Shown here: positions 9,279-34,807 of the stretch, piece after piece | Layout: every line of letters begins with the position of its first letter | How positions within the stretch are numbered: the first letter of the stretch is position 1 | Assembly: GCA_963765765.1 (NCBI GenBank) | Contig: CAVXYC010000027.1 | Coordinates: forward strand, 96,001 to 160,000 | Origin: an uncultured Chloroflexia bacterium | GTDB lineage: Bacteria > Chloroflexota > UBA6077 > JACCZL01 | Direction: 5' to 3' | DNA length: 64,000 nt | Program-made: the position numbers and the translations under genes | The notes under the pieces: model-generated | The model's database searches: none | What the model saw: the letters and a program-made list of their open reading frames with translations, nothing else | What the model was told of the DNA's origin: nothing

Positions 9279-9641
9279 TTGGCGCTCATTCTTTATGTAA
9301 GTACGTTCGGGTCTGATGATCCAACTCGGGCAACTCTGGCATTTGGCGACGCCCTCGGAGCGATTGAGGCGGGTCACCAGGCGATGATCGCCTTGGCCGG
9401 CGAAGCGACCTACCTTATGAAGGACAGCGTCGCGGCGGCCGTACAGGGCGTGGGTTGGCCAACCGTGCGTGAGCTGCTCGAGAAGGTCATCGAGCACAAG
9501 ATCCCCATCTATGTTTGAGGCACCTGCAGTGGCGCCCGTGGGGTGTCTGAGACGGACCTGACCGGTAAGAACGCGCAGTTCATGAACCCAAAGCTTTTCG
9601 CCAATCTGGTTGTTCAGGCGGATCGGGTGGTTAGCCTGTAA
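9279..9641 (+). CDS. DsrE/DsrF-like selenoprotein (UxxC; in-frame TGA at 9516-9518 read as Sec)
   Basis: GGAGG RBS then TTG; DsrE-like sequence continues past TGA: IPIYV-U-GTCSGARGV...NLVVQADRVVSL-TAA (120 aa); hairpin 12 nt after the TGA. Confidence 0.85.
9531..9547 (+). promoter_or_regulatory. candidate bacterial SECIS hairpin
   Basis: GGCGCCC-GUG-GGGUGUC, 7-bp stem with two G-U pairs, GU in the apical loop, loop starts 19 nt after the UGA. Confidence 0.65.
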
Positions 9642-9643
9642 CG

Positions 9644-9898
9644 ATGCTCTGGATTTCAATAGGGGCGTATTTCATGGGGCTCGTTGCCGGAGTCTTCGCG
9701 AGCCAGGTACTGGACGTCCAGCTCCGCCGACCGGGAGTTAAGCTCTCGATCGTACTGGCGATGCTCGGCACACTCCTTACGATCTTCCTGATCAACACCA
9801 ATACCACGATGCCAGACTGGCTGCTCATGATCCTGTGGGTAGGCATCGGTCTGCTTGCTGGACTGGGAAGCCGGGACCCGCGCTCGGTAAGCATTTAG
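9644..9898 (+). CDS. small three-TM membrane protein
   Basis: Three hydrophobic segments; ATG starts 2 nt after the DsrE TAA. Confidence 0.7.
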   Translation: MLWISIGAYFMGLVAGVFASQVLDVQLRRPGVKLSIVLAMLGTLLTIFLINTNTTMPDWLLMILWVGIGLLAGLGSRDPRSVSI

Positions 9899-9949
9899 CA
9901 CGTTACTGGGGACGCAGATGATGGCAAAGCCTCGGACCTCTGCCCGGTA

Positions 9950-11215
9950 TCAACCGTTTACTGCCACTTGGTGATTTGTTGATCGGCCCGCGAGCCACAC
10001 CAGTATCGCGGCGAGAATCATGGCTATTCCGGCTCCGGAATAGAGCCAGTGGAGTCCATACCCAACCATGAGGCCTGAGATGTAGGGACTCGCAGCCCAG
10101 CCCAGCATGCCGATGCTGGTGGCAACACCAACCGCCGTAGACCGTTGAGATGCCGGAGCCTGATGGGCCGCGGCGCTGAATGCCAGCGTGGGAACGGCCC
10201 CAGCAACGAGCGCGATGAGAATCCGGACCGCGACGAACTGCCACCACAGGGTCACGAATAGAAGTCCGAAGACCAGCACAGCCGCGATGGCCAGCGCGGG
10301 CGCGATGAAGGTAAACGCCGGGATGCGACCATCGAGTCGTCCGGCGAGATTTGCTGCAACCACCACAGCTAGCCCAGCGAAAGAAACGCCTGCGCCAGCG
10401 ATGAGCGTGAGCGACTCCTCAGGAGCGCCCAGCGGCCCGATGACCACGGGCAGCAGCGACATGAAGCTGCCGTCCACAAAGTTCGCGATGAAGAGCGCCG
10501 CCAATGGCGCCCAGAATCGCAACGTGCGAGGCCTGGCGCCTGAGGGTTCTCCGGCCCGTGGAGGCGACGCCTCCACGGGAGGCGGATTGCGATACATCAT
10601 TCCAGTGACGATGCAAGCCATTCCAAACAACCCCGCGGCCACGACGAAGCTCGCACGAAAGCCAAATACCGTCGCCAGCGCGCCACCCAGAAGCGGCCCG
10701 AGCGTCGGCCCGAATTGTTGCGCTGACTGAAGCATTGCGATCGCTCGCCCCAGCTCATGACGTCGGGATGACGCCGTGATCGCTGCCATCGATGCGACAG
10801 GTATCCCGCCGAACAGGCCGATAATGATTCGATCAAGGACCAGGTGAATGGGATGCGTCGCAAAGGCCATAAGCGCCGTGGCAAAACCAATGAATGCGAC
10901 CGAACGCATAAGCATGGCCTTCTGGCCTACCCGCTGACCGATCCAGACCCAGAGCGGCCCGGTAGAGGCAGAGAGAAGCGGCGAGACACCAATTGCGAGC
11001 CCAGACCAGGCCGCCGCCTCGGCAAGATCACCATCAATGAGTGTGTGGATATAGAGGGGAAAAATCGGCATTACAAAGAGAAAGCCGATCGATGCAATGG
11101 CCGAAGCGAGGCATGTGACCAGGACGTTCCGCCGCCGAGCGCTCGCCGGAAAACCGGCATCATCGCCCTGTTCGACGATTGTCGACTTCAGATTGGCGGT
11201 GGACTCTTCAATCAT
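9950..11215 (-). CDS. MFS transporter (DHA1/MdtG-like)
   Basis: About 12 TM segments; QFGPTLGPLLGG motif C region. Confidence 0.88.
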   Translation of the reverse strand: MIEESTANLKSTIVEQGDDAGFPASARRRNVLVTCLASAIASIGFLFVMPIFPLYIHTLIDGDLAEAAAWSGLAIGVSPLLSASTGPLWVWIGQRVGQKAMLMRSVAFIGFATALMAFATHPIHLVLDRIIIGLFGGIPVASMAAITASSRRHELGRAIAMLQSAQQFGPTLGPLLGGALATVFGFRASFVVAAGLFGMACIVTGMMYRNPPPVEASPPRAGEPSGARPRTLRFWAPLAALFIANFVDGSFMSLLPVVIGPLGAPEESLTLIAGAGVSFAGLAVVVAANLAGRLDGRIPAFTFIAPALAIAAVLVFGLLFVTLWWQFVAVRILIALVAGAVPTLAFSAAAHQAPASQRSTAVGVATSIGMLGWAASPYISGLMVGYGLHWLYSGAGIAMILAAILVWLAGRSTNHQVAVNG

Positions 11216-19463: not shown

Positions 19464-21579
<2,116 letters not shown>

Positions 21580-25911: not shown

Positions 25912-25941
25912 TTGACATCGGGTGGGACGGTCACCTTTAAT
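25912..25941 (+). promoter_or_regulatory. sigma-70-type promoter of the cupin/TTT/EutA operon
   Basis: TTGACA-N18-TTTAAT, about 145 nt upstream of the first ATG. Confidence 0.6.
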
Positions 25942-25970
25942 CAGGCGTCGCGAAGTAGGAATCCGACTGG

Positions 25971-26050
25971 AGAGACGGGGTAGTATCCGAGCGGGAATTT
26001 GAAGCCGGGAGCTGCTCGGCGCGCATTCCCCCGGATGTCCCGTCTTTTTT
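25971..26050 (+). promoter_or_regulatory. structured 5' leader ending in a U6 tract (possible attenuator)
   Basis: AGACGGG/CCCGTCT, TATCCG/CGGATG, GGGAAT/ATTCCC nested helices followed by TTTTTT. Confidence 0.45.
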
Positions 26051-26085
26051 GATGTGCGACGGGCACACCACCCAGGGAGACAGCA

Positions 26086-27216
26086 ATGGCCATTGCAAAC
26101 GCACTTGGAACGACCTATCAAGTCGATTCCTATCTGAATTTCGTCAAGAGTGAGAACATTCCCATCTACGACGTCTACGCTGTCGACACGCTTACCGTGG
26201 ATCTCGAGCCCTGGGAGCGGGTGGGAGGTCTTGGGGCCTATGTGCACCTGGCTGGACGCAGTGACTATCTGAGCTGCTACGTGTCGGAAATCGCTGCGGG
26301 TGGTCATCTGAAATCGGAGCGCCACGCGTTCGACAAGCTGATCTACGTCGTCAAGGGTCGCGGCGCTACCACGATCGAGCTTGGGAACGGCAAGAAACAT
26401 ACGTTCGAGTGGGGCCCGGGGAGCCTGTTCGGCATCCCGATGAACGCCCAGCATCAGCACTTCAATGGCTCAGGAACTGAGACGGCACGGTTTGCTGCCG
26501 TCACCAACCTGGCCATCATCATGAACATCTACCACAACACCGACTTCATCTTCGACAACCCATTCGTCTTCAACGACCGAGCGGGCGAGGATCGGTTCTT
26601 CCAGGGTGAGGGCGAGTACCACCCGGTGAAAGCCGGCCGCAATCACTGGGAGACAAACTTCGTGCCCGACCTGGTCAATTTCGAGCTGCCAGAATGGCAT
26701 GCACGGGGGGCGGGAGGCAACAACATCCAGTTCCTTCTCGCGAACTCGACGATGCACGCGCACATTTCCGAGTTTGGTCAGGGCACGTACAAGAAAGCCC
26801 ATGCGCACGACGCGGGCGCACACATCTTTTGTGTGACCGGACAGGGATACTCACTGCTATGGCATGACGGTGAGAATCCGATTGATACCGTGCGCGTGGA
26901 CTGGAAGCCCGGAACGCTTTACGCGCCACCAGACGGGCCCACAATCCACCAGCATTTCAACACCGCAACCGCAACTTCACGGTATCTCGCTCTCGACTTT
27001 GGCGGCATTCGTTATAAGGTGACCGAGAAGAAGAGCAAGAACTACGAGGGTATGGACGTGTCCATGAAGGACGGCGGCATTCAGATTGAGTATGAGGATG
27101 AGGACCCGCGCATTCTCGAGCTCTTCGAGAGGGAGTGTGCCGGGGCTGGGGGCCAATCGAAAATGCGAGAGTGGATTTCGGACTACGTGGCCAATAGGCA
27201 GGTGGCCAGGACATGA
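26086..27216 (+). CDS. bicupin protein, paralog 1
   Basis: Two cupin repeats: RHAFDKLIYVVKGRG...AQHQHFN and KKAHAHDAGAH...IHQHFN. Confidence 0.88.
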   Translation: MAIANALGTTYQVDSYLNFVKSENIPIYDVYAVDTLTVDLEPWERVGGLGAYVHLAGRSDYLSCYVSEIAAGGHLKSERHAFDKLIYVVKGRGATTIELGNGKKHTFEWGPGSLFGIPMNAQHQHFNGSGTETARFAAVTNLAIIMNIYHNTDFIFDNPFVFNDRAGEDRFFQGEGEYHPVKAGRNHWETNFVPDLVNFELPEWHARGAGGNNIQFLLANSTMHAHISEFGQGTYKKAHAHDAGAHIFCVTGQGYSLLWHDGENPIDTVRVDWKPGTLYAPPDGPTIHQHFNTATATSRYLALDFGGIRYKVTEKKSKNYEGMDVSMKDGGIQIEYEDEDPRILELFERECAGAGGQSKMREWISDYVANRQVART

Positions 27217-27255
27217 ACATGAATGTGGCACACGAACTAAAGGAGCACAGCATCG

Positions 27256-28794
27256 ATGCCACCTGAAGCGGTACAGGTCGACGTCTGGCACGCGTTTTAC
27301 AGTAGCCTTTTCCAGATTCTGGAATGGCCGACCATCGGGTACATGTTTATCGGAATGTTTATCGGATTCTGGGTCGGCATCTTGCCCGGAATTGGCGGCG
27401 CGGCAACAATGGCGCTCATGCTGCCTTTCGTCTTCAGCATGACGCCCGTTGCCGCAATTGCATTTCTGCTGGGGATGTACTCGGTCACCGCGACAACAGG
27501 TGACATCACCTCAGTTCTTTTTGGTGTCCCTGGTGAAGGAAGCTCAGCCGCGGTCATTTTTGACGGCTTCCCGATGGCCAAACGGGGTGAAGCCGGGCGG
27601 GCTCTCGGCATCGTGCTCTTCACGTCGCTCGTTGGCGCGATCATCGGCGCGATAGGACTGGCGCTGGTGATCCCATTCGTGCGCCCCATTGTGCTGAGCT
27701 TCGGACCACCCGAATTCTTCATGATGGCGGTGCTCGGACTGAGTTTCGTCGCAGCGTTGAGTGGTGGGTCGATTACCAAGGGGCTTTTGATGGCTGGCTT
27801 CGGTCTCATTCTGGCGACAGTTGGCCAGGACCCAGGCACCGCGCGGCTTCGCTACACCTTTGGTGAGCCGTATCTCTTCCAGGGCGTGCCGCTTATCCCG
27901 GTTGCGGTCGGCTTATTCGCCGTACCATCCATCGTAGAGATGATGTGGCAGAAGACCTCCATTGCTCGAGTAAAGCCTACGGAAATCCATGGCGCCATGC
28001 AGGGAGTGAAGGACACGTTCACCTATTGGTGGCTGACCGTCCGGGCAAGCCTCATTGGCCTTGTCCTGGCTATGATCCCGGGGGTAGGCGGCGGCACGTC
28101 GCAGTTCGTAGCCTACGCGCACGCTTACCAGACATCGAAGAACAAAGAAGCGTTTGGCAAAGGCTCCATCGAGGGTTTAGTCGCGGCCGGTGCGGTGAAC
28201 AACTCTCGCGAAGGCGGCCATCTCATTCCAACGGTAGCTTTCGGTATTCCCGCGGGCGCAGCCATGGCCCTGCTTCTGGGAGCGCTACTCATCGTTGGGA
28301 TCACCCCAGGCCCCGCCATGTTGACTACAAACCTGGACGTGACGTTCAGCATGGTCTGGACGATGGTCGTGACCAACATCATCACGGTGATATTCTGCTT
28401 AATTTTTGTAAAGCAACTCGCCTGGATCACGTTTGCCAAAGGCTCTGTCTTGGTGCCGTTTCTGATCTTCCTGGTTGCCATTGGCGCATTCACCGCGAAC
28501 AATGCCTGGCTGGATATCGTAGTGATGCTCTTCTTCGGCGTAATGGGCATGCTTATGACGATCTGGCGCTGGCCTATCCCACCGTTGTTGCTTGGTCTTG
28601 TCTTGGGAGATCTCGCGGAGCGGAATTACTTCCTCTCGCAATCCCTGTGGCCTGGTGGCGAATGGGTCACGCGACCTCTGGTCATCGTGCTTGGCATCAT
28701 CTCGATCTTGGGTCTCGCTGGCCCGCTGATTTCGGACTTTCTCAAGAAACGAACGATGCGCGCGTTGAAGGTAAAGGAGGTGGACGTTGTCTAG
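27256..28794 (+). CDS. tctA: tripartite tricarboxylate transporter large permease (TctA)
   Basis: GILPGIGG, VPGEGSSAAVIFDGFPMAKRGEAGRAL, GHLIPTVAFGIPAG. Confidence 0.92.
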   Translation: MPPEAVQVDVWHAFYSSLFQILEWPTIGYMFIGMFIGFWVGILPGIGGAATMALMLPFVFSMTPVAAIAFLLGMYSVTATTGDITSVLFGVPGEGSSAAVIFDGFPMAKRGEAGRALGIVLFTSLVGAIIGAIGLALVIPFVRPIVLSFGPPEFFMMAVLGLSFVAALSGGSITKGLLMAGFGLILATVGQDPGTARLRYTFGEPYLFQGVPLIPVAVGLFAVPSIVEMMWQKTSIARVKPTEIHGAMQGVKDTFTYWWLTVRASLIGLVLAMIPGVGGGTSQFVAYAHAYQTSKNKEAFGKGSIEGLVAAGAVNNSREGGHLIPTVAFGIPAGAAMALLLGALLIVGITPGPAMLTTNLDVTFSMVWTMVVTNIITVIFCLIFVKQLAWITFAKGSVLVPFLIFLVAIGAFTANNAWLDIVVMLFFGVMGMLMTIWRWPIPPLLLGLVLGDLAERNYFLSQSLWPGGEWVTRPLVIVLGIISILGLAGPLISDFLKKRTMRALKVKEVDVV

Positions 28795-29407
28795 GGCTGA
28801 CTTCTGGATCGCGAGACTACCTGCCATAATGAGCCTCTTCGTGCTGCTTGTATTCATCATCGCCGTTGTACAAATCCAGAGCTTTCCGGCCAGAGCAAAG
28901 GCCTTCCCATTAGTCGTTGCCTGGCCCATGCTTGCGCTGGCAATCGTGCAGCTAGGCATGGATCTCTTCAAACCAAGGGCACGGGGTGGGCCCGCTACGT
29001 CTATGGCAATGGGGATGTCAACGGGCGCAGTTCCCGACGATGTCCGCCAGGCTTCCGTAAAACCGGCCACCACGGTCAGCGAGGCCGATCGGCTGGCCCA
29101 GCTCAGGGTCGAGCTTGACGAGCTTGCAGCACTCGAAGATGCTGAGGTCGTCCCGCACACGCGCAAAGACATTGTTATTGCGCTTACGTGGTTCTTCGCG
29201 TTCTTCGTGGTCATCTGGCTCATCGGCATGCGCATCGGGATTCCGCTCTATACCGCGATCTACCTCTTCGTCGTTTCGAAGGAAAAGTGGTGGGGGGCTC
29301 TATTGGGCGCTGCCGGCGCGTACGCTTTCATCTTTTTCATCTTTGACCAGATCGGGCACCTGCCCTTCTTCCCAGGCGAGCTCATCAAGATGTTGGGTCT
29401 CGACTAG
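28787..29407 (+). CDS. tctB: TTT small permease (TctB family)
   Basis: 4-5 TM, AKAFPLVV, overlaps the end of tctA. Confidence 0.8.
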   Translation: MSRADFWIARLPAIMSLFVLLVFIIAVVQIQSFPARAKAFPLVVAWPMLALAIVQLGMDLFKPRARGGPATSMAMGMSTGAVPDDVRQASVKPATTVSEADRLAQLRVELDELAALEDAEVVPHTRKDIVIALTWFFAFFVVIWLIGMRIGIPLYTAIYLFVVSKEKWWGALLGAAGAYAFIFFIFDQIGHLPFFPGELIKMLGLD

Positions 29408-29545
29408 GCTGCGATCCGGTCCGGTAACATAGCAGCGCGGAGCCACAACCACGCTGCCCGATCTACAGGTACGCGGCGCGCCGAGCTCGGCGCGCCGCGT
29501 ACGTTTGTGTGGATAGTTGATGTCCCAATCCCAGGAGGTTTCAAG

Positions 29546-30778
29546 TTGATCCAGTCCCGTCGGCCGCGCGGCGTAGCGCTCTCCGTTCTAGGTTCCATGG
29601 CGGGCGCCTTACTTGCAGCATGCTCACCGAGCGCGCCGGCGAGTCCCACTACTGCACCCAAGCCCACCGCGGCAGCCGAGAAACCAGCCGCATCTCCGGG
29701 AGCCGTCCCCGCTGGCTCCCCATTCGCATCACCGGTCGCATCTCCCGCCGCGGGCGCACCTGCCGCCGCGGCCAAGACATCCACGTCCACAGTAGATCCA
29801 TCGCTCGCATCGACCTGGCAGGGCAAGACCCTCACCATCGTGGTAGCCGAAGCTCCTGGCGGTGGGTATGACAACTGGGGACGCCTTGTTGGTCGACATC
29901 TCGGAAAACAGCTTCCCGGCAATCCGACCGTCATAGTGGAGAACATGCCCGGCGGATCGCACCGGATCGGCACCAATCATGTCTATCAGTCCAGAGCTGA
30001 CGGTCTGACTATTGGCCTGGTGGACCGTTTTATCCCGGGCTACCAGCTACGCGGCGAGGGCCCCGAAGAAGGCGTTCGCTACGATGCCAACAAACTCAAC
30101 TGGCTTGGTAGCACCGCGACCGAGACACAGGCATTGACCATGACAAGCAAACCAGAGGTGACCAGTTGGAAAGACCTGGCCACCAAAGAGGTCAAGATCG
30201 GACACACGGGTCCTGGAAGTTCGCCGCACACCTACCAGTTGCTGCTGAACAAGGCCCTGAACCTCAAGACTCAGCCGATCTTTGGCTACAATGGCACGGC
30301 CTCCATTCTTCTGGGCATGGATCGTGGCGAGGTCGATGGCATCGTCATCTCGTACTCGTCGCTCGCCATTCAGAAGGCGGATGACCTCAAGGCAAAGAAC
30401 CTCATTCCGCTTGTGCAGTTTGGCGATGCCCGCATCAAGGACCCGTTGTCCGGAATGCCACCGGCCGCGGAAGATCTTTTCAAAGAGGCCTCACCTGAAT
30501 ATCAGCAGCTCCTCGCTCTCGCACAGCGGCCATTCACCTGGTCTCGAGCCTTCGTCCTGCCGCCCAATATGGATGCCAAGGTGCTGAGCACGATGCGCGC
30601 TGCATTCATGAACACTATGTCTGACGCCGACTTCCTCTCTGATGCTCGTCAACTCAAATTCGATGTGGACGCGGTGTCAGGCGAACAAGTGCAGTCGCTC
30701 ATCGAGGAGTACATGAAAACCCCGCGGCCCATCGTGGACCGATTGACTGAGCTAATCGAGGCAGACACCCCACACTGA
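29546..30778 (+). CDS. tctC: TTT substrate-binding lipoprotein (TctC/Bug family)
   Basis: AGGAGG RBS then TTG; lipobox LLAAC; Pro/Ala linker; APGGGYD, VENMPGG, ADGLTI. Confidence 0.88.
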   Translation: MIQSRRPRGVALSVLGSMAGALLAACSPSAPASPTTAPKPTAAAEKPAASPGAVPAGSPFASPVASPAAGAPAAAAKTSTSTVDPSLASTWQGKTLTIVVAEAPGGGYDNWGRLVGRHLGKQLPGNPTVIVENMPGGSHRIGTNHVYQSRADGLTIGLVDRFIPGYQLRGEGPEEGVRYDANKLNWLGSTATETQALTMTSKPEVTSWKDLATKEVKIGHTGPGSSPHTYQLLLNKALNLKTQPIFGYNGTASILLGMDRGEVDGIVISYSSLAIQKADDLKAKNLIPLVQFGDARIKDPLSGMPPAAEDLFKEASPEYQQLLALAQRPFTWSRAFVLPPNMDAKVLSTMRAAFMNTMSDADFLSDARQLKFDVDAVSGEQVQSLIEEYMKTPRPIVDRLTELIEADTPH

Positions 30779-30827
30779 GCACAAATCGGCGGTAGGATAC
30801 GCACCTATAGGAGGAAAGAGGACACAG

Positions 30828-32429
30828 ATGTTTGACGAGCTACGCGAACGGTTTCAGCATGACTGGGACTTCGACCACGACCACGAGGATTTCGAGGACG
30901 AGGACTGGTCGCCGCCCACATCAAAGAACGATTTTTACTATGCCGACAATATCGAGCTGACCACGGTCGGAATTGATATTGGCTCGTCGACATCGCACCT
31001 GATGTTTTCACGGCTCCATCTACAGCGCCTGGGGCAGTTTCTTTCCAGCCGCTATGTGGTCGTGAATCGCGAGGCCCTCTATCGATCTGAAATCCTACTC
31101 ACACCTTACCGATCTGACAATACGATCGATGCTGAGAGCCTGGGCAACTTCATTGCCACGGCCTACCAGGAGTCCGGGCTCTCACCCGACGACATCGACT
31201 CCGGCGCCATCATCCTCACAGGTGAGGCCATCAAGCGAAGTAACGCACGTGCAATTGCGGACCTCTTCGCCACTCAGGCTGGAAAGTTCGTCTGCGCATC
31301 GGCCGGTCACAACCTCGAGGCTATCCTGGCGGCCAACGGCTCTGGTGGCGTGGCGCTTTCCCGCGACCCTGCCCAAACGGTGCTCAACATCGACGTTGGC
31401 GGTGGCACCAGCAAATTCGCGCTCATCACCAACGGCAAGGTTCTCGAAACGGCCGCTATCAACGTCGGTGGACGTCTTGTGGCCGTTGACGAAAATCGCA
31501 AGGTGACTCGAGTTGAGCACGCCGCCCACATCGTTGCCGATTCGATCGGAGTGCATCTCAAGATCGACGAGACTCTGTCAAAGGAAGATGAAGAGAAGCT
31601 TGGCGACCGCCTGGCCGAGTGCATCTTCGAGCTTGCCAATCGGCAAAAGCTCAGCCCTCTGGCTCAAGAGCTCATGCTTACACCAGAGCTCACGATAGAC
31701 TTACCCGTGGATTTGGTCACCTTCTCAGGTGGTGTCTCCGAATACATCTACGAGCGTGAGAACACCGACTACGGCGACCTTGCCCTCTCTCTTGCGGCCT
31801 CAGTGCGCAAGCGCATCGCGGACGGCCGCTTACCCGCCGCTATGAAATCTACGGACGAGCGTATTCGCGCAACGGTGATCGGCGCCTCGCAGTTCACCGT
31901 TCAGGTCAGCGGCAACACGATCTCCATCAGTGATGAGTCCGTTCTCCCCTTCCACAATCTTCAGGTCATCTACCCGCACTTGCCCGAGCGTGAAGACGTC
32001 ACGCCAGACGAGGTGCTGGAAAGTATCCAGCGAGCATTCCAGCGATTCGACATCGTGGAAGGTGATGTCCTTGTTGCGTTGGCCATCGACTGGGCCGGCA
32101 CTCCGCGTTATCCGCTCCTGCGGAACATCGCAGAGGGCATTGCCAAGGGTCTCGCGAACACGATCGCCACGAAACAGCCTCTAGTGCTGGTCTTTGCCAA
32201 TGACTTTGGCAAGCTCATCGGCGACATCATGCGCGAAGAATTCGGGGTCCAGGGGCAGATCATCTCCATCGATAGCATCGTGCTCCAGGAGTTCGACTAC
32301 ATCGACGTCGGTGAAGTCATCCGCCCGGCGTTCGTGGTTCCAGTCGTTGTCAAGTCACTCGTGTTCCCGGAGATCGTCACAGCCGACGCGGCGGAAGTCG
32401 CTGAAGCGTACTCGGGGGCGAAGCAGTAG
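30828..32429 (+). CDS. eutA: EutA-like ASKHA ATPase (ethanolamine ammonia-lyase reactivase homolog)
   Basis: VGIDIGSSTSHL, GAIILTGEA, NIDVGGGTS, TFSGGV, IRATVIGA, DYIDVG...VPVVVKSLVF; homolog name only, function probably different. Confidence 0.85.
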   Translation: MFDELRERFQHDWDFDHDHEDFEDEDWSPPTSKNDFYYADNIELTTVGIDIGSSTSHLMFSRLHLQRLGQFLSSRYVVVNREALYRSEILLTPYRSDNTIDAESLGNFIATAYQESGLSPDDIDSGAIILTGEAIKRSNARAIADLFATQAGKFVCASAGHNLEAILAANGSGGVALSRDPAQTVLNIDVGGGTSKFALITNGKVLETAAINVGGRLVAVDENRKVTRVEHAAHIVADSIGVHLKIDETLSKEDEEKLGDRLAECIFELANRQKLSPLAQELMLTPELTIDLPVDLVTFSGGVSEYIYERENTDYGDLALSLAASVRKRIADGRLPAAMKSTDERIRATVIGASQFTVQVSGNTISISDESVLPFHNLQVIYPHLPEREDVTPDEVLESIQRAFQRFDIVEGDVLVALAIDWAGTPRYPLLRNIAEGIAKGLANTIATKQPLVLVFANDFGKLIGDIMREEFGVQGQIISIDSIVLQEFDYIDVGEVIRPAFVVPVVVKSLVFPEIVTADAAEVAEAYSGAKQ

Positions 32430-32535
32430 TTCACGCTCTGGTAGAGAGGCATGGCCCGACGCTGCCTCTCTACCAACATCAATCAGTTTCTGCCCGCTAT
32501 CGATTAACGCCACGCTCATCAGCACGGGAGGAGAC

Positions 32536-33579
32536 ATGGCTGATACAGAGGTCCGATTGCGCGTTGACGCGTACGGTGAATGGGCTGCCGCTCAAGGCGT
32601 ACCCATTCTTACGGGCCACTATGTGGAAGATCTCAACACCGTTGAGTTAGCCCCCTGGGAGATGATCGAGGGCCGCGGCGCCATCATCAATCTAACGGGC
32701 TCTGAGCAAACGTCCGGCGCTTATGTTGCAGAGATCCCTCCGGGACAGAGCCTCAAGCCACAGCGGCATCTCTACGAGGAGATTATCCACATCCTCAGCG
32801 GCCGAGGCGCCACGACCGTGTGGCAATCCGAAGACGGGGCGAAGCACTCCTTCGAGTGGGGTCCCGGCAGTCTGTTTGCCGTTCCGCTCAACGCGGCGTA
32901 TCAGATGCACAACGGCCAGGCCGGTGACCCAGTCAGGTTCGTGGCGGTTCACACCGCGCCGCTGTTGATGAACTATTTCCACAATCCCGACTTCATCTTC
33001 GCGAATCCATTCCGATTTAATGATCGCTTCGACGGTCGCGGTGACTTCTTCAGTGGAGACGGCCGGCACCTCGAGACCCGCAGCCTGGAGATCAACTTCC
33101 TCTCCGATGTCCGATCACTTGGACTCGAGACGTGGGTCGAGCGCGGCGGCGGCGGCACCTCGATGGGCTTTGAGCTCTCGAGCAACACGTTCGGCTCGCA
33201 CGTCTCCGAATTTCAACCGGGCAACTACAAGAAGGGTCATCGTCACGGCGGCGGCGCCCACATTCTGATCCTGCACGGAGAGGGCTACAGCTTGATGTGG
33301 CCGGACGACGAGGACTGGATCAAAGTGGACTGGAAACCCGGAGCATTCTTCTCTCCCCCGGACGTCTGGTGGCATCAGCACTTCAACGTCAGTGACGGCC
33401 AGGCTCGTTATCTGGCTTTTCGGTGGGGCAGCCGGAAATTCAGCATGCCGCGGCTCTTTCAGCCTGACAAACGCGTGGGCTCTGGCAAGAGTCAAATCGA
33501 ATACGAGGAAGAGGATCCGCGCGTCCGACAAATCTTTGATGAAGAGTGTGCGAAATGGAAGACCCGCGCGGGAAAGTAG
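32536..33579 (+). CDS. bicupin protein, paralog 2
   Basis: GGAGGAG RBS before ATG 32536; QRHLYEEIIHILSGRG and KKGHRHGGGAH...WHQHFN. Confidence 0.88.
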   Translation: MADTEVRLRVDAYGEWAAAQGVPILTGHYVEDLNTVELAPWEMIEGRGAIINLTGSEQTSGAYVAEIPPGQSLKPQRHLYEEIIHILSGRGATTVWQSEDGAKHSFEWGPGSLFAVPLNAAYQMHNGQAGDPVRFVAVHTAPLLMNYFHNPDFIFANPFRFNDRFDGRGDFFSGDGRHLETRSLEINFLSDVRSLGLETWVERGGGGTSMGFELSSNTFGSHVSEFQPGNYKKGHRHGGGAHILILHGEGYSLMWPDDEDWIKVDWKPGAFFSPPDVWWHQHFNVSDGQARYLAFRWGSRKFSMPRLFQPDKRVGSGKSQIEYEEEDPRVRQIFDEECAKWKTRAGK

Positions 33580-33659
33580 TGCCGTTTTCAATTTTGGCCG
33601 CGGCCTGCTAGAGTTGGATTCGGCAATGCGGGCCAATTGCTGCACCAAAGGAGTTCATT

Positions 33660-34736
33660 GTGACTGCAACCCCAATGCTTGGCCGTAGAAGTACCTACGC
33701 CAAATTTGTCCAGAGCGAAGGCATCCCCTTGATCGAGGGATCGTACATCGAAGACCTCAAGACTGTGGAAGTGCAGCCGTGGGCTCGTCGCGATGTACGC
33801 GGCGCCTACATCAACCACGACGCCAGTGATATCTCCAACGACTGTTACGTGATGGAGATTCCGCCAGGAAAAGAGAGCGCACCGCAGCACCAGATGTTTG
33901 AGGAGATGATCTACGTTCTCCAGGGACGTGGTGCTACCACCGTCTGGACGGACGGCGGCAAGAAGCATCACTTCGAATGGGGACCCGGCGCGCTCTTTGG
34001 GATTCCACTGAACGCGTGGCATCAGCACTTCAATGCGTCGGGCAGTGAGAATGTCCGATACCTCGGTGTCACCAGCGCTCCGGTATCGATCAACACCTTC
34101 GCAAGCACGGACTTCGTCTTCAACTGCGACTACAAGTTCACGGATCGTTTCACCGGTGAGGAGGATTACTTCAGCGGCAAGGGTACTCAGACCGGCATGG
34201 TCTGGGAGACCAACTTCGTCGCGAACGTTCCTGACTACGCGCTTCTGGACTACAAGGCGCGCGGCGCGGGCGGGCGGAACATCAAGTTCACGCTCTGCAA
34301 GAACCAGATGGGCGCCCACGTCTCCGAGTTCCCGGTGGGCACGTACAAGAAGGGCCACCGACACGGGCCAGGAGCGCACGTCGTCGTCATCGGCGGCGAG
34401 GGATACTCACTCATGTGGAAGCAGGGTGAGGAGATCAAGAAGTACGACTGGCACGTCGGCAGCCTGGTCATTCCCCCGGATCGAACGTTCCACCAGCACT
34501 TCAATGTTGGCGCATCACCCGCTCGCTATCTGGCCCTGCGCTTCAGTGGCAACACCGAGATGCTCACCTACGACCCCAACAATCTGCCCATGGGTCAGCG
34601 CAGCGTCAGCATTGGCGGGGACCAGTTCGAGTACGACGAGCAGGATCCGTACATTCACGATACCTTCGTGAAAGAGTGTGCCAAGCACGGCGTCGAAGTG
34701 AAGATGAAAGAGTTCCTGCCCGTCGGTAAAGCGTAG
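33660..34736 (+). CDS. bicupin protein, paralog 3
   Basis: AAGGAG RBS; QHQMFEEMIYVLQGRG...WHQHFN and KKGHRHGPGAH...FHQHFN. Confidence 0.88.
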   Translation: MTATPMLGRRSTYAKFVQSEGIPLIEGSYIEDLKTVEVQPWARRDVRGAYINHDASDISNDCYVMEIPPGKESAPQHQMFEEMIYVLQGRGATTVWTDGGKKHHFEWGPGALFGIPLNAWHQHFNASGSENVRYLGVTSAPVSINTFASTDFVFNCDYKFTDRFTGEEDYFSGKGTQTGMVWETNFVANVPDYALLDYKARGAGGRNIKFTLCKNQMGAHVSEFPVGTYKKGHRHGPGAHVVVIGGEGYSLMWKQGEEIKKYDWHVGSLVIPPDRTFHQHFNVGASPARYLALRFSGNTEMLTYDPNNLPMGQRSVSIGGDQFEYDEQDPYIHDTFVKECAKHGVEVKMKEFLPVGKA

Positions 34737-34762
34737 CCAGCACCTTTGCTTGAGAGTGCAAT

Positions 34763-34807
34763 ATGGGGCCAGTGGAGGGCTATATGCCTGCCACTGGCCC
34801 CATTTTT
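34763..34807 (+). terminator. intrinsic terminator closing the cupin operon
   Basis: ATGGGGCCAGTGG/CCACTGGCCCCAT 13-bp stem followed by TTTT. Confidence 0.8.

Follow-up and report, generated by a model that had tools for sequence, protein, structure and literature searches.

EutA is the ATP-dependent reactivase of the vitamin B12 enzyme ethanolamine ammonia-lyase. The reactivases of diol and glycerol dehydratase, DdrAB and PduGH, are ATPases of the Hsp70/actin fold that pry open their client enzyme and swap its damaged cofactor. Nickel metallochaperones such as HypA/HypB and UreE/UreG, together with the G3E GTPases of COG0523, contain His-rich stretches and deliver metal to a specific client in an NTP-driven manner; in HypA, the N-terminal Ni-binding motif is MHE (PMC7055735). 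A dedicated accessory protein encoded in a catabolic operon is also known for catechol 2,3-dioxygenase, a ring-cleaving non-haem iron enzyme that is reactivated by XylT-type ferredoxin. Gentisate and salicylate 1,2-dioxygenases are ring-cleaving Fe(II) bicupins, and the active site of known gentisate dioxygenases lies in the N-terminal barrel. To our knowledge, no characterised gentisate or salicylate dioxygenase needs an ATPase.

In this article, we analyse a locus of an uncultured Chloroflexia bacterium (GTDB lineage Bacteria; Chloroflexota; UBA6077; JACCZL01) where a EutA-like ATPase is encoded among three bicupins and a tripartite tricarboxylate-type (TTT) transporter. The window, i.e., the whole stretch of DNA that was analysed, is 64,000 nt long (assembly GCA_963765765.1, contig CAVXYC010000027.1, positions 96,001–160,000 of the forward strand), and its source genome is 91.8% complete with 6.9% contamination. 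The genomes used for comparison are mostly MAGs, and the ORF starts are a heuristic choice. The original prediction, made from the sequence alone, described seven co-directional ORFs in the order cupin1-tctA-tctB-tctC-eutA-like-cupin2-cupin3, and this held, with the ORFs at the positions claimed (window 26086–34736, + strand). The features are as follows.

25912–25941, +: promoter-like TTGACA-N18-TTTAAT, 5' of bicupin 1; sequence match only
26086–27216, +: bicupin 1, 376 aa; Pfam Cupin_2, expanded gentisate-dioxygenase-like bicupin family
27256–28794, +: TctA, large membrane subunit of the TTT transporter; PF01970, 411.7 bits, full length
28787–29407, +: probable TctB, small membrane subunit; PF07331, 17.6 bits, under the 29.1 cut-off, with a fitting position between tctA and tctC
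29469–29502, +: GC-rich hairpin of 15 pairs between tctB and tctC; terminator-like scan
29507–30778, +: TctC-like solute-binding lipoprotein, start codon uncertain; PF03401, 33.3 bits, residues 132–285; long Ala/Pro-rich linker
30828–32429, +: EutA-family ASKHA ATPase, 533 aa, non-EAL clade; EutA PF06277, 430.1 bits
30828–30950, +: His/Asp/Glu-rich N-terminal tail of the EutA-like protein, residues 1–41; alignment with E. coli EutA begins only at residue 43
32533–33579, +: bicupin 2, 348 aa, directly downstream of the EutA-like gene; Cupin_2 twice (Pfam)
33660–34736, +: bicupin 3, 358 aa; Cupin_2 twice (Pfam)
34762–34807, no strand: hairpin and T-run, flanked by the convergent genes for bicupin 3 and an fpg/nei-like protein; possible bidirectional terminator

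The EutA-like protein is homologous to EutA over its full length. Its residues 43–513 cover profile positions 2–474 of the 475 in PF06277, and its end-to-end identity with E. coli EutA (b2451) is 34%. None of the four NCBIfam EutA equivalog cut-offs is reached: the best model (NF007992) gives 365.2 bits against a required 598, and the other three give 227–277 bits against 769–952. In a FastTree phylogeny of 135 rows, the 131 sequences that are not associated with ethanolamine ammonia-lyase (EAL), drawn from several phyla, form one clade with an SH-like support of 100 that excludes the four canonical EutAs. The canonical side of the tree rests on only these four rows (E. coli, Halalkalicoccus, Listeria and C. 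difficile), and FastTree alone was used. The window ATPase is a member of this separate clade. For three of the four canonical proteins the gene directly adjoins annotated eutBC. In E. coli K-12, a prophage lies between eutA and eutBC. The non-EAL clade, which spans many bacterial phyla, constitutes a widespread, unstudied sister group of EutA, and its members are likely misnamed in databases as "EutA reactivating factor". The ATP motifs of the clade are intact: 50 sequences show no variation at D50, G52, T55, D189, G191–G193, T194, G301 and G302, which belong to the ASKHA phosphate-1, phosphate-2 and adenosine motifs. The AF2 model (pLDDT 87.7) is matched by Foldseek to Ppx/GppA, the HgdC activator, DnaK and MreB.

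No EAL client was found for this ATPase. Searches for EutB (PF06751), EutC (PF05985) and microcompartment proteins (BMC, PF00936) gave 0 matches each in the whole 91.8%-complete genome, and the controls were detected in E. coli. None of the 66 class genomes yielded EutB, nor did any of the 5 module-carrying genomes examined from other lineages, and EutB was likewise not found within 8 kb of any of the 82 loci in a cross-phylum sample.

Both the adjacency of EutA-like genes to bicupins and the co-occurrence of the two families are conserved. A bicupin gene is located within 500 bp on the same strand for 39 of the 63 EutA-like genes of the class and for 43 of the 82 in the cross-phylum sample; 76 of the 131 clade members on the tree adjoin a same-strand bicupin, and in five further genomes 11 of 15 EutA-like genes are adjacent to one by coordinates. 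The chance of such adjacency in the window genome is ~1.5% per gene by our own estimate, which is based on its 31 bicupin matches in 6.5 Mb. No other family comes close as a same-strand neighbour: bicupins take this place at 77 loci, any other family at 15 at most. In 32 of 65 EutA-like/bicupin pairs the two genes overlap or are separated by no more than 30 nt. Both families are present in 24 of the 66 class genomes, the ATPase alone in 1, the bicupin alone in 3, and neither in 38. A tail-less EutA-like subclade (the C18 type with Phyllobacterium and Sinorhizobium) has its bicupin partners in a single distinct clade. The ATPases are few relative to the bicupins, 3 versus ~31 in the window genome and 2–4 versus 3–25 in the five other genomes. 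No bicupin-EutA fusion was found among the longer proteins searched, which is weak evidence. About 40% of the clade members are not beside a bicupin. A 22-member Binatia/deltaproteobacterial subclade has conserved non-cupin synteny with DUF4175, TPR, MBL-fold and OadA-like genes, and other EutA-like genes are found after gltX or within an hrcA-grpE-dnaJ-prmA-rsmE operon; these contexts suggest that the role of the clade is broader or different.

The bicupins resemble gentisate and salicylate 1,2-dioxygenases in their best structural matches and in an H-x-H ... H motif. Using VIA-align, the AF2 model of bicupin 2 (pLDDT 91) is matched to 2phd (Z 22.1, rmsd 3.4 Å, 266 aligned), 3bu7 (Z 22.0, rmsd 4.1 Å, 276 aligned) and 2d40 (Z 20.3, rmsd 3.4 Å, 248 aligned), followed by an oxalate decarboxylase at 19.4. 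The structural test is met, in that the modelled fold is closest to the salicylate and gentisate enzymes. Bicupin 3 has a distant match to the gentisate 1,2-dioxygenase 3bu7 (E 2e-4). In contrast to these dioxygenases, the window bicupins score far too low with the gentisate-dioxygenase equivalogs (18–33 bits overall; 18–22 bits with TIGR02272, cut-off 442; cut-off 650 for NF049978), and their invariant His triad belongs to the C-terminal barrel. There, the motif H-x-H ... H-Q-H contributes H233, H235 and H278/H280, which are invariant in 113 sequences; metal binding and activity at this site are inferred. The ligands of the N-terminal barrel are variable (H78 in 81/113, H123 in 59/113), and the completeness of this site does not track adjacency to EutA-like genes, being complete in 38 of 78 adjacent and 14 of 35 non-adjacent bicupins. 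The EutA-adjacent bicupins do not form a clade of their own in the tree, and the nearest relatives of bicupin 1 are same-genome paralogs that do not adjoin any EutA-like gene.

A complex of the ATPase with bicupin 2 was modelled, and it passes its controls, with scores of 0.71, 0.71 and 0.66 against 0.01 for the best of 3 controls. In the benchmark, 58 of 80 solved complexes and 2 of 110 mismatched pairs attain the score mark, although with our own alignments as input these counts apply only roughly. At least 53% of contacts recur between the runs, and the partner pLDDT is at least 82. Memorisation by the predictor is an unlikely cause of the pass, since a sequence search of the PDB found no EutA structure. 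Binding of the two proteins is nonetheless a prediction of the model only. The predicted interface involves the N-terminal barrel of the bicupin, with its variable ligands, and not the invariant C-terminal site, which counts against our reading. On the ATPase side of the predicted interface, E. coli EutA shares the C-terminal-domain motifs SGNT, NDFGK and R-Y and differs at W422, G424 and P426.

The original prediction also held that this EutA homolog has a partner other than EAL, probably the cupins, which is supported, with binding by model only. The absence of eutB/eutC and microcompartment genes that it noted in the window was confirmed genome-wide; the check did not cover the cobalamin genes, which it had likewise reported as missing. 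None of the outcomes that would have refuted it was observed: the protein falls outside the canonical EutAs, no eutBC was found elsewhere in the genome, and the cupin linkage is conserved in the class and across phyla.

The N-terminal tail is a property of the non-EAL clade and is absent from canonical EutA. At least three His residues occur in the 45 positions before the first ASKHA motif in 109 of the 131 clade members and in 0 of the 4 canonical EutAs, and His makes up 9.0% of tails compared to 2.4% of cores. Tail residues H11, D12, H17 and H19 are nearly invariant in A1, and the AF2 model suggests disorder, with pLDDT <50 for residues 1–16 and 20–38. The His-rich tail is missing in 22 of the 131 members, including the bicupin-linked C18 paralog. 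The tail contains MH[DE] in 46 of the 131 members, and this start resembles the MHE site of HypA; the window protein has no such start and begins MFDELRERFQHD. NicO-family Ni/Co transporter genes adjoin the EutA-like gene at five loci (Phyllobacterium zundukense, L035, L088, L089 and L105), the first of which also has NikR, a setting reminiscent of Ni metallochaperones. Such neighbours occur at only 5 of ~137 non-duplicate loci, spread over 3 lineages, and the window genome has no NicO/HoxN match by tblastn. Unlike HypA/HypB, UreE/UreG and COG0523, the EutA-like clade has the ASKHA fold rather than a P-loop GTPase or zinc-ribbon fold and is not homologous to them, and metal binding by its tail is inferred.

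We propose, with a probability of ~0.55, that the EutA-like ATPase is an ATP-driven maturation or reactivation factor, probably metal-exchanging, for the bicupins. This is an inference not backed by any experiment. The non-EAL clade would have lost, or never had, a B12 enzyme as its client, and the gentisate/salicylate-dioxygenase-like bicupins would be the client. The ATPase would dock through its C-terminal domain at the entrance of the bicupin's N-terminal barrel, and its actin/Hsp70-like core would bind and hydrolyse ATP to open the bicupin, such that a metal ion that is wrongly bound, oxidised or missing could be exchanged. The disordered His/Asp/Glu-rich tail may hold the incoming ion, with Fe, Ni and Co as candidates. 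Each genome, with its one to six ATPases of this kind, would rely on them for anything from three to over 30 bicupin paralogs. The exchange of metal or cofactor, the identity of the metal and the substrate are all inferred, and the mechanism is by analogy, with DdrAB/PduGH serving as the model; those reactivases belong to another Pfam family and have a B12-enzyme client. The likeness to EutA itself consists of full-length homology, the same ASKHA nucleotide motifs and the shared C-terminal interface motifs, and the differences are the separate clade, the lack of EutBC, the additional His/acidic tail and the bicupin neighbour. XylT differs in that it reduces Fe(III) without ATP, and the proteins involved and the dioxygenase fold are unrelated to those discussed here. 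The choice that the original prediction offered, between a metal/cofactor-exchanging reactivase and an ATP-dependent activating subunit, remains a matter of inference. Its statement that no biochemical description of such a module is known fits our finding of none, and no description of the bicupin-linked EutA-like clade was present in the literature searched.

The alternative that survives best, and which remains possible, is that the ATPase and bicupin are the two components of a single ATP-dependent catalyst, where the ASKHA subunit activates the substrate by phosphorylation or another ATP-coupled step and the bicupin cleaves, isomerises or decarboxylates it. It is favoured by the tight, often overlapping gene pairs, the complex model that passes controls, the intact ATP motifs, and the presence of kinases and ATP-coupled enzymes in the ASKHA fold, including among the structural matches. 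Against it, few ATPases are available for many bicupins, the EutA-adjacent bicupins lack a clade of their own, the sole relative known to be characterised is a protein-directed reactivase and not a small-molecule kinase, and neither the disordered, His-rich tail nor the neighbouring Ni/Co transporters are accounted for. A second, unlikely alternative is that the protein lacks a specific bicupin client and acts in regulation, or as an Hsp70-like ATPase in general folding or quality control, in which case the frequent bicupin adjacency would arise because both families are abundant in catabolic islands. The housekeeping contexts (the hrcA-grpE-dnaJ-prmA-rsmE operon, the position after gltX, the conserved Binatia synteny), DnaK among the structural matches, and adjacency to Rieske oxygenases in ~6–8 of 63 cases, near chance at ~100 Rieske genes per genome, are in its favour. 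It is opposed by bicupin adjacency far above chance across phyla, the tight co-occurrence of both families, the pairing of ATPase paralogs with particular bicupin clades, and the specificity of the complex model relative to controls. A true reactivase for an AdoCbl enzyme encoded elsewhere, with the cupins incidental, has in its favour the full-length EutA homology, the methylmalonyl-CoA-mutase-family genes in the genome and NicO transporters that, by family name only, also carry cobalt, but it is very unlikely given that the mutase-family genes are on other contigs (C20, C28), that methylmalonyl-CoA mutase uses a G3E GTPase chaperone, that EutB was not found in the 66 class and 5 other genomes, and that adjacency, overlapping gene pairs and the complex model point to the bicupins.

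A bolder version of the maturation-factor reading, which we consider less likely than not, is that the whole clade is a so far unrecognised class of ATP-driven metallochaperones that dock on cupin dioxygenases to insert or swap their Fe, Ni or Co ion, with the His-rich tail as a shuttle. If so, cofactor-exchange reactivases would not be confined to cobalamin enzymes, and cupin metallation, a classic mis-metallation problem, would be actively assisted in many soil and marine bacteria.

The locus had also been described as one co-directional unit between a promoter and an intrinsic terminator, which held in part. The letters are present: TTGACA at 25912–25917 and TTTAAT at 25936–25941 are separated by an 18-nt spacer, and a hairpin at ~34762–34802 has an 11-bp stem and a 15-nt loop followed by a T-run. 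A consensus scan, whose rules call for A as the second base of the -10 hexamer and for a terminator loop of 3–8, lists neither, and its number of sites is not above that of shuffled sequence; both signals are therefore sequence matches only. Co-direction held, and a single transcription unit is unproven because the strong hairpin at 29469–29502 separates tctB from tctC; it could be an internal terminator, an attenuator or an RNA-stabilising element. Among the transporter genes, TctA is clear, TctC is above its cut-off of 27 bits with part of the profile only and has a lipoprotein-like N-terminus in its translation, and TctB remains below its cut-off. The operon with the TTT transporter is likely to import and cleave an aromatic or other organic acid, the substrate being inferred.

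We consider the ATPase encoded in the window, a 533-aa EutA-like protein, to be best explained as an ATP-driven maturation or reactivation factor for bicupins (double-cupin proteins) that resemble gentisate dioxygenases. No experiment on this point exists, and we assign the reading a probability of only about 0.55. The ATPase would act in the manner of its B12-reactivase cousins, but it would swap a metal ion.

The locus consists of seven ORFs, all in one direction, spanning positions 26086-34736.

Genes of the locus (window coordinates, strand, description)
26086-27216, plus strand, bicupin 1 (Pfam/NCBIfam)
27256-28794, plus strand, TctA (411.7 bits)
28787-29407, plus strand, weak TctB (17.6 bits, under the cut-off)
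29507-30778, plus strand, TctC-like binding protein (33.3 bits, partial match)
30828-32429, plus strand, full-length EutA-family protein, the ATPase (PF06277, 430 bits)
32533-33579, plus strand, bicupin 2 (Pfam/NCBIfam)
33660-34736, plus strand, bicupin 3 (Pfam/NCBIfam)

The EutA-family protein falls under every NCBIfam EutA equivalog cut-off (best score 365 versus 598). The flanking genes, a PMT_2 glycosyltransferase and an Fpg/Nei-like glycosylase, are unrelated and run in the opposite direction. The original prediction described a single transcription unit extending from a TTGACA-N18-TTTAAT promoter to a terminator. Both the promoter sequence and a terminal hairpin with a T-run are present, but neither is listed by a consensus scan of the sequence, in which promoter and terminator sites were no more frequent than in shuffles. 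The scan does list a perfect 15-pair GC-rich palindromic hairpin (29469-29502), followed by GTTTGTGTGG, in the 99-nt gap between tctB and tctC; it may mark a break between two transcription units or serve to stabilise the mRNA. Because of this hairpin and the lack of support from the scan, only the gene order and common direction of the predicted unit are confirmed, and a single transcript is not shown. Neither the leader nor the operon yielded a riboswitch or other known RNA above chance. Four soil metatranscriptome runs from four studies contain short contigs, 90-100% identical to the window, that match bicupin 1, tctA, the ATPase gene, bicupin 2 and bicupin 3 in part; two of these contigs, in X14, show zero differences. 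These contigs are compatible with expression and no more, as they do not show strand, ends or level; DNA may be present in the libraries, and no meaning attaches to the parts without coverage.

The canonical EutA is the reactivase of ethanolamine ammonia-lyase (EAL, EutBC). Searches for EutB, EutC and BMC shell families gave zero matches each in the genome of the window (G000; 6.49 Mb, 33 contigs, 91.8% complete, 6.9% contaminated), with every control detected in E. coli; the absence of eutB, eutC and microcompartment genes claimed for the window therefore holds and extends to the whole genome at that completeness. The same genome contains three EutA-like paralogs, namely C27 (the window gene), C17 and C18. 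EutB was found in none of 66 genomes of the class, among which 25 contain an EutA-like gene and 27 a bicupin: 24 have both families, one has the ATPase only (G044), three have a bicupin only (G040, G041 and G059), and 38 have neither. This table is a pattern rather than a test, since related genomes are not independent.

The window protein aligns with E. coli EutA only from residue 43 on, at 34% identity. Annotated replicons show an identity gap: values relative to the window protein are 43-46% for the Phyllobacterium and Sinorhizobium copies and 30-34% for the EutAs of enterobacteria, Firmicutes, fusobacteria and haloarchaea. Annotated eutBC genes are the immediate neighbours of the canonical eutA in Halalkalicoccus, Listeria and C. 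difficile, and in E. coli K-12 eutA is separated from eutBC by a prophage. In a FastTree phylogeny of 135 rows, which left out rows with cores shorter than 400 aa and identical duplicates, all 131 non-EAL sequences form one clade (SH-like support 100) that excludes the canonical EutAs, although only four canonical rows were included and no other tree method was used. Bicupins adjoin 76 of the 131 clade members. No EutA structure was found in the PDB by sequence, and Foldseek with the ATPase model returned generic ASKHA folds only.

Linkage to bicupins was counted for 63 EutA-like genes of the class (60 of the 64 non-own matches, the window gene and the two paralog loci; four partial matches at contig ends, G060:C42, G058:C285, G033:C194 and G055:C225, were left out) using tblastn with the three window bicupins at E <=1e-10. 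A same-strand bicupin occurs within 500 bp of 39 of these genes, upstream in 31 loci and downstream in 13, some loci having both, and a bicupin occurs within 1500 bp of 42. We estimate chance adjacency in G000, with its ~31 bicupin hits, at ~1.5% per gene. The C18 paralog is itself flanked by bicupins, together with an Amidohydro_2 gene and an alpha/beta hydrolase.

A pattern scan of GTDB, with one genome per prokaryote species, found at least 593 stretches encoding a relative. The best 80 loci (45-64% identity) include, by record title, Dehalococcoidia and SAR202, Rhodospirillaceae, Xanthobacteraceae and other Alphaproteobacteria, Burkholderiales, Acidiferrobacterales, Binatia, Thermodesulfobacteriota and Syntrophales, and one Actinomycetota MAG. 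A same-strand bicupin lies within 500 bp of 43 of the 82 EutA-like genes in this sample, and EutB lies within 8 kb of none of the 82. The class and cross-phylum counts overlap, as at least eight of the 80 loci are class contigs (L070, L081, L086, L087, L103, L110, L114 and L123). In five genomes of the sample EutB is absent, 11 of 15 EutA-like genes adjoin a bicupin by coordinates, and there are 3-25 bicupins versus 2-4 ATPases. Blind clustering of same-strand neighbours placed the bicupin in 77 loci and every other family in 15 or fewer. Among non-duplicate ATPase-bicupin pairs, 32 of 65 overlap or are at most 30 nt apart (ORF starts being heuristic). No bicupin-EutA fusion was found among the long proteins, which included two long forms, one with a methyltransferase domain. 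In P0122, a protein of 1001 aa, methyltransferase domains are fused to the EutA domain. In a Chloroflexota subclade (L035, L039 and L053) a class I methyltransferase adjoins the EutA-like gene.

Modelled from paired 50-row alignments (A2, A3), the ATPase and bicupin 2 together scored 0.71, 0.71 and 0.66, whereas none of three controls exceeded 0.01. Of 80 solved complexes 58 attained the score mark, as did 2 of 110 mismatched pairs, figures that apply only approximately here because the alignments were our own. At least 53% of contacts were common to the runs, and partner pLDDT was at least 82. In the predicted interface, the C-terminal domain of the ATPase (362-364, 424-432, 458-471, 482-483 and 500-502) contacts bicupin 2 at the mouth of its N-terminal barrel (71-73, 91-95, 104-110 and 124-130, including H126). 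As a prediction, the model supports binding without demonstrating it.

The AF2 model of bicupin 2 (pLDDT 91) has its best structural matches, in a wide VIA search, among salicylate and gentisate 1,2-dioxygenases (Z 22.1, 22.0 and 20.3), followed by oxalate decarboxylase (19.4). The sequence link to gentisate dioxygenase is weak (3bu7, E 2e-4; TIGR02272 far under its cut-off); Foldseek, less informative than the wide search, gave only generic bicupins (TM ~0.5), and the protein atlas gave only clusters named "putative cupin domain-containing protein". Across 113 bicupins the C-terminal barrel residues Y229, K231, H233, H235, H278, Q279 and H280 (bicupin 3 numbering) are invariant, whereas the putative ligands of the N-terminal barrel vary (H78 in 81, H123 in 59), and completeness of the N-terminal metal site shows no link to ATPase adjacency. 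EutA-adjacent bicupins are dispersed in the family tree and intermixed with paralogs from the same genome that have no EutA-like neighbour, consistent with one helper serving many clients. The partners of one ATPase subclade that lacks the tail (the C18 type, Phyllobacterium and Sinorhizobium) belong to a single, distinct bicupin clade, consistent with specific co-evolution.

The bicupin family ranges over soil and marine Chloroflexota including SAR202, Binatia and Proteobacteria. For SAR202-VII-2, degradation of terrestrial aromatic matter has been inferred from annotated ring-cleaving dioxygenases, gentisate 1,2-dioxygenases among them (PMC6123686), although it is not established that they belong to the same family as these bicupins; Supplementary Data 2 of that paper may list these genes. 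The family is hugely expanded, with at least 27 copies in G000 and 34 matches in the genome of one relative (105 first-look candidates). Other large families in G000, by tblastn, are Rieske/LigXa-like (~125 hit pieces, or roughly 100 genes), Amidohydro_2 (69), TctC (49), TctA (22) and SBP_bac_5 (15), a repertoire specialised on aromatic and organic acids. What the operon takes as substrate is unidentified; the TTT transporter, the bicupin fold and the large Rieske, Amidohydro_2 and TctC sets point to aromatic or other organic acids. Rieske oxygenases were rejected as a second specific partner: Rieske and LigXa_C genes lie beside ~6-8 of the 63 EutA-like genes, approximately the chance rate given how many such genes G000 contains.

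Hints of a metal come from the N-terminal tail and from neighbouring genes. In canonical EutAs a few residues precede the first ASKHA motif, whereas clade members have an N-terminal extension rich in His, Asp and Glu (residues 1-41 in the window protein) in which the pattern H-[DE]-x-x-[FW]-x-H-x-H recurs. Counted over the 45 residues that precede this first motif, 109 of 131 clade members have at least three His, versus none of four canonical proteins, and His content is 9.0% in tails and 2.4% in cores. MH[DE], the sequence of the HypA N-terminal nickel site (PMC7055735), occurs in the tail region of 46 of the 131. The window protein has the conserved residues H11, D12, H17 and H19, and its residues 1-38 are disordered in the model. 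Nickel/cobalt transporter genes are neighbours in five of ~137 non-duplicate loci, in three lineages. Phyllobacterium zundukense has the order cupin, EutA-like, HoxN/NixA Ni/Co permease, NikR, its ATPase-bicupin pair lying at L148 7681-8919 and 8932-10452; a Chloroflexota contig (L035) has a HoxN homolog 1.5 kb downstream; and three alphaproteobacterial MAGs (L088, L089 and L105) have the order UbiD, EutA-like, NicO, the NicO-family protein carrying a His-rich loop (in L088 a 242-aa membrane protein, 9531-10259, starting ~10 nt past the EutA-like stop). We would expect fewer by chance for so rare a family, but have no matched control. NicO and HoxN gave zero hits in G000. Some bicupins beside tail-less ATPases (L041, L042, L059 and L148) begin with His-containing stretches, such as MHQD...THWHEP in Phyllobacterium, a weak observation at 4 of 9 examples.

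Besides the absence of any experiment, three points stand against the main reading. The predicted docking involves the variable N-terminal barrel rather than the invariant C-terminal site, some bicupin-linked ATPases have no tail, and EutA-like genes also occur in non-cupin contexts. A 22-row Binatia/deltaproteobacterial subclade retains synteny with DUF4175, TPR, MBL-fold, ferredoxin-like and OadA-like genes and no bicupin; UbiD is directly upstream in four alphaproteobacterial loci; and the EutA-like gene follows gltX in two Dehalococcoidia loci.

Among the rivals, a two-component ATP-dependent catalyst formed by the ATPase and the bicupin would share the linkage and predicted complex with the main reading, and we consider it unlikely. 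That the ATPase is a general chaperone also appears improbable. The context to set beside this proposal is that of C17 (G000:C17:104076-105587; L005 8020-9588), which has a His-rich tail and lies in a heat-shock and translation operon (hrcA-grpE-dnaJ-prmA-rsmE-[EutA-like]-MiaB-like radical SAM-sucCD); a congeneric copy (L060, genome G039) is its sister on the tree. This operon has no dnaK in the usual place. Service to a distant B12 client is the least credible rival, the methylmalonyl-CoA-mutase-family genes of G000 lying on contigs other than that of the window.

The maturation or reactivation reading thus remains preferred. The original prediction gave the EutA homolog a different partner, probably the cupins, and proposed a homolog tree, gene neighbourhoods and complex modelling as checks. 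The clade proved distinct from eutBC-linked EutA within the limits of the tree, the cupin linkage is conserved in the class and across phyla but is not universal, and the predicted complex with bicupin 2 exceeds its controls; linkage and model support the partner, and metal exchange stays inferred. Its statement that no biochemical description of the module was known also holds within the literature searched, where we found no paper on the non-EAL clade or the cupin-ATPase pairing (subscription journals and supplements were outside the search); EutA, ASKHA, cupin, Hsp70 and reactivase do not appear in the first half of a 2024 metallostasis review (PMC11672702).

Metal delivery driven by nucleotides is not known outside the P-loop GTPases. 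If the main reading is true, an ASKHA-fold ATPase serving non-haem metal cupins would be a new solution to metal delivery, and the concept of a reactivase would reach beyond B12; if the helper is obligatory, it matters for expressing and assaying these bicupin enzymes. The clade is widespread and probably mis-named in databases: relatives that carry a source name, and the Phyllobacterium copy, are listed as "ethanolamine ammonia-lyase reactivating factor EutA" or "ethanolamine utilization protein EutA", a name that here predicts a pathway that is not there. The module is testable in cultured carriers, namely Phyllobacterium zundukense and three Sinorhizobium species.

Two minor observations concern other parts of the window. 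The adenylation-domain profile of the NAD-dependent DNA ligase ORF (20143-21579) is matched only from position 132, and a 202-aa ORF (19548-20156) overlaps its start, so that a frameshift or a miscalled start in ligA (19548-21579) is possible. Between 48000 and 56000 the AT skew is strongly positive (0.17-0.27) along a long run of minus-strand ORFs.
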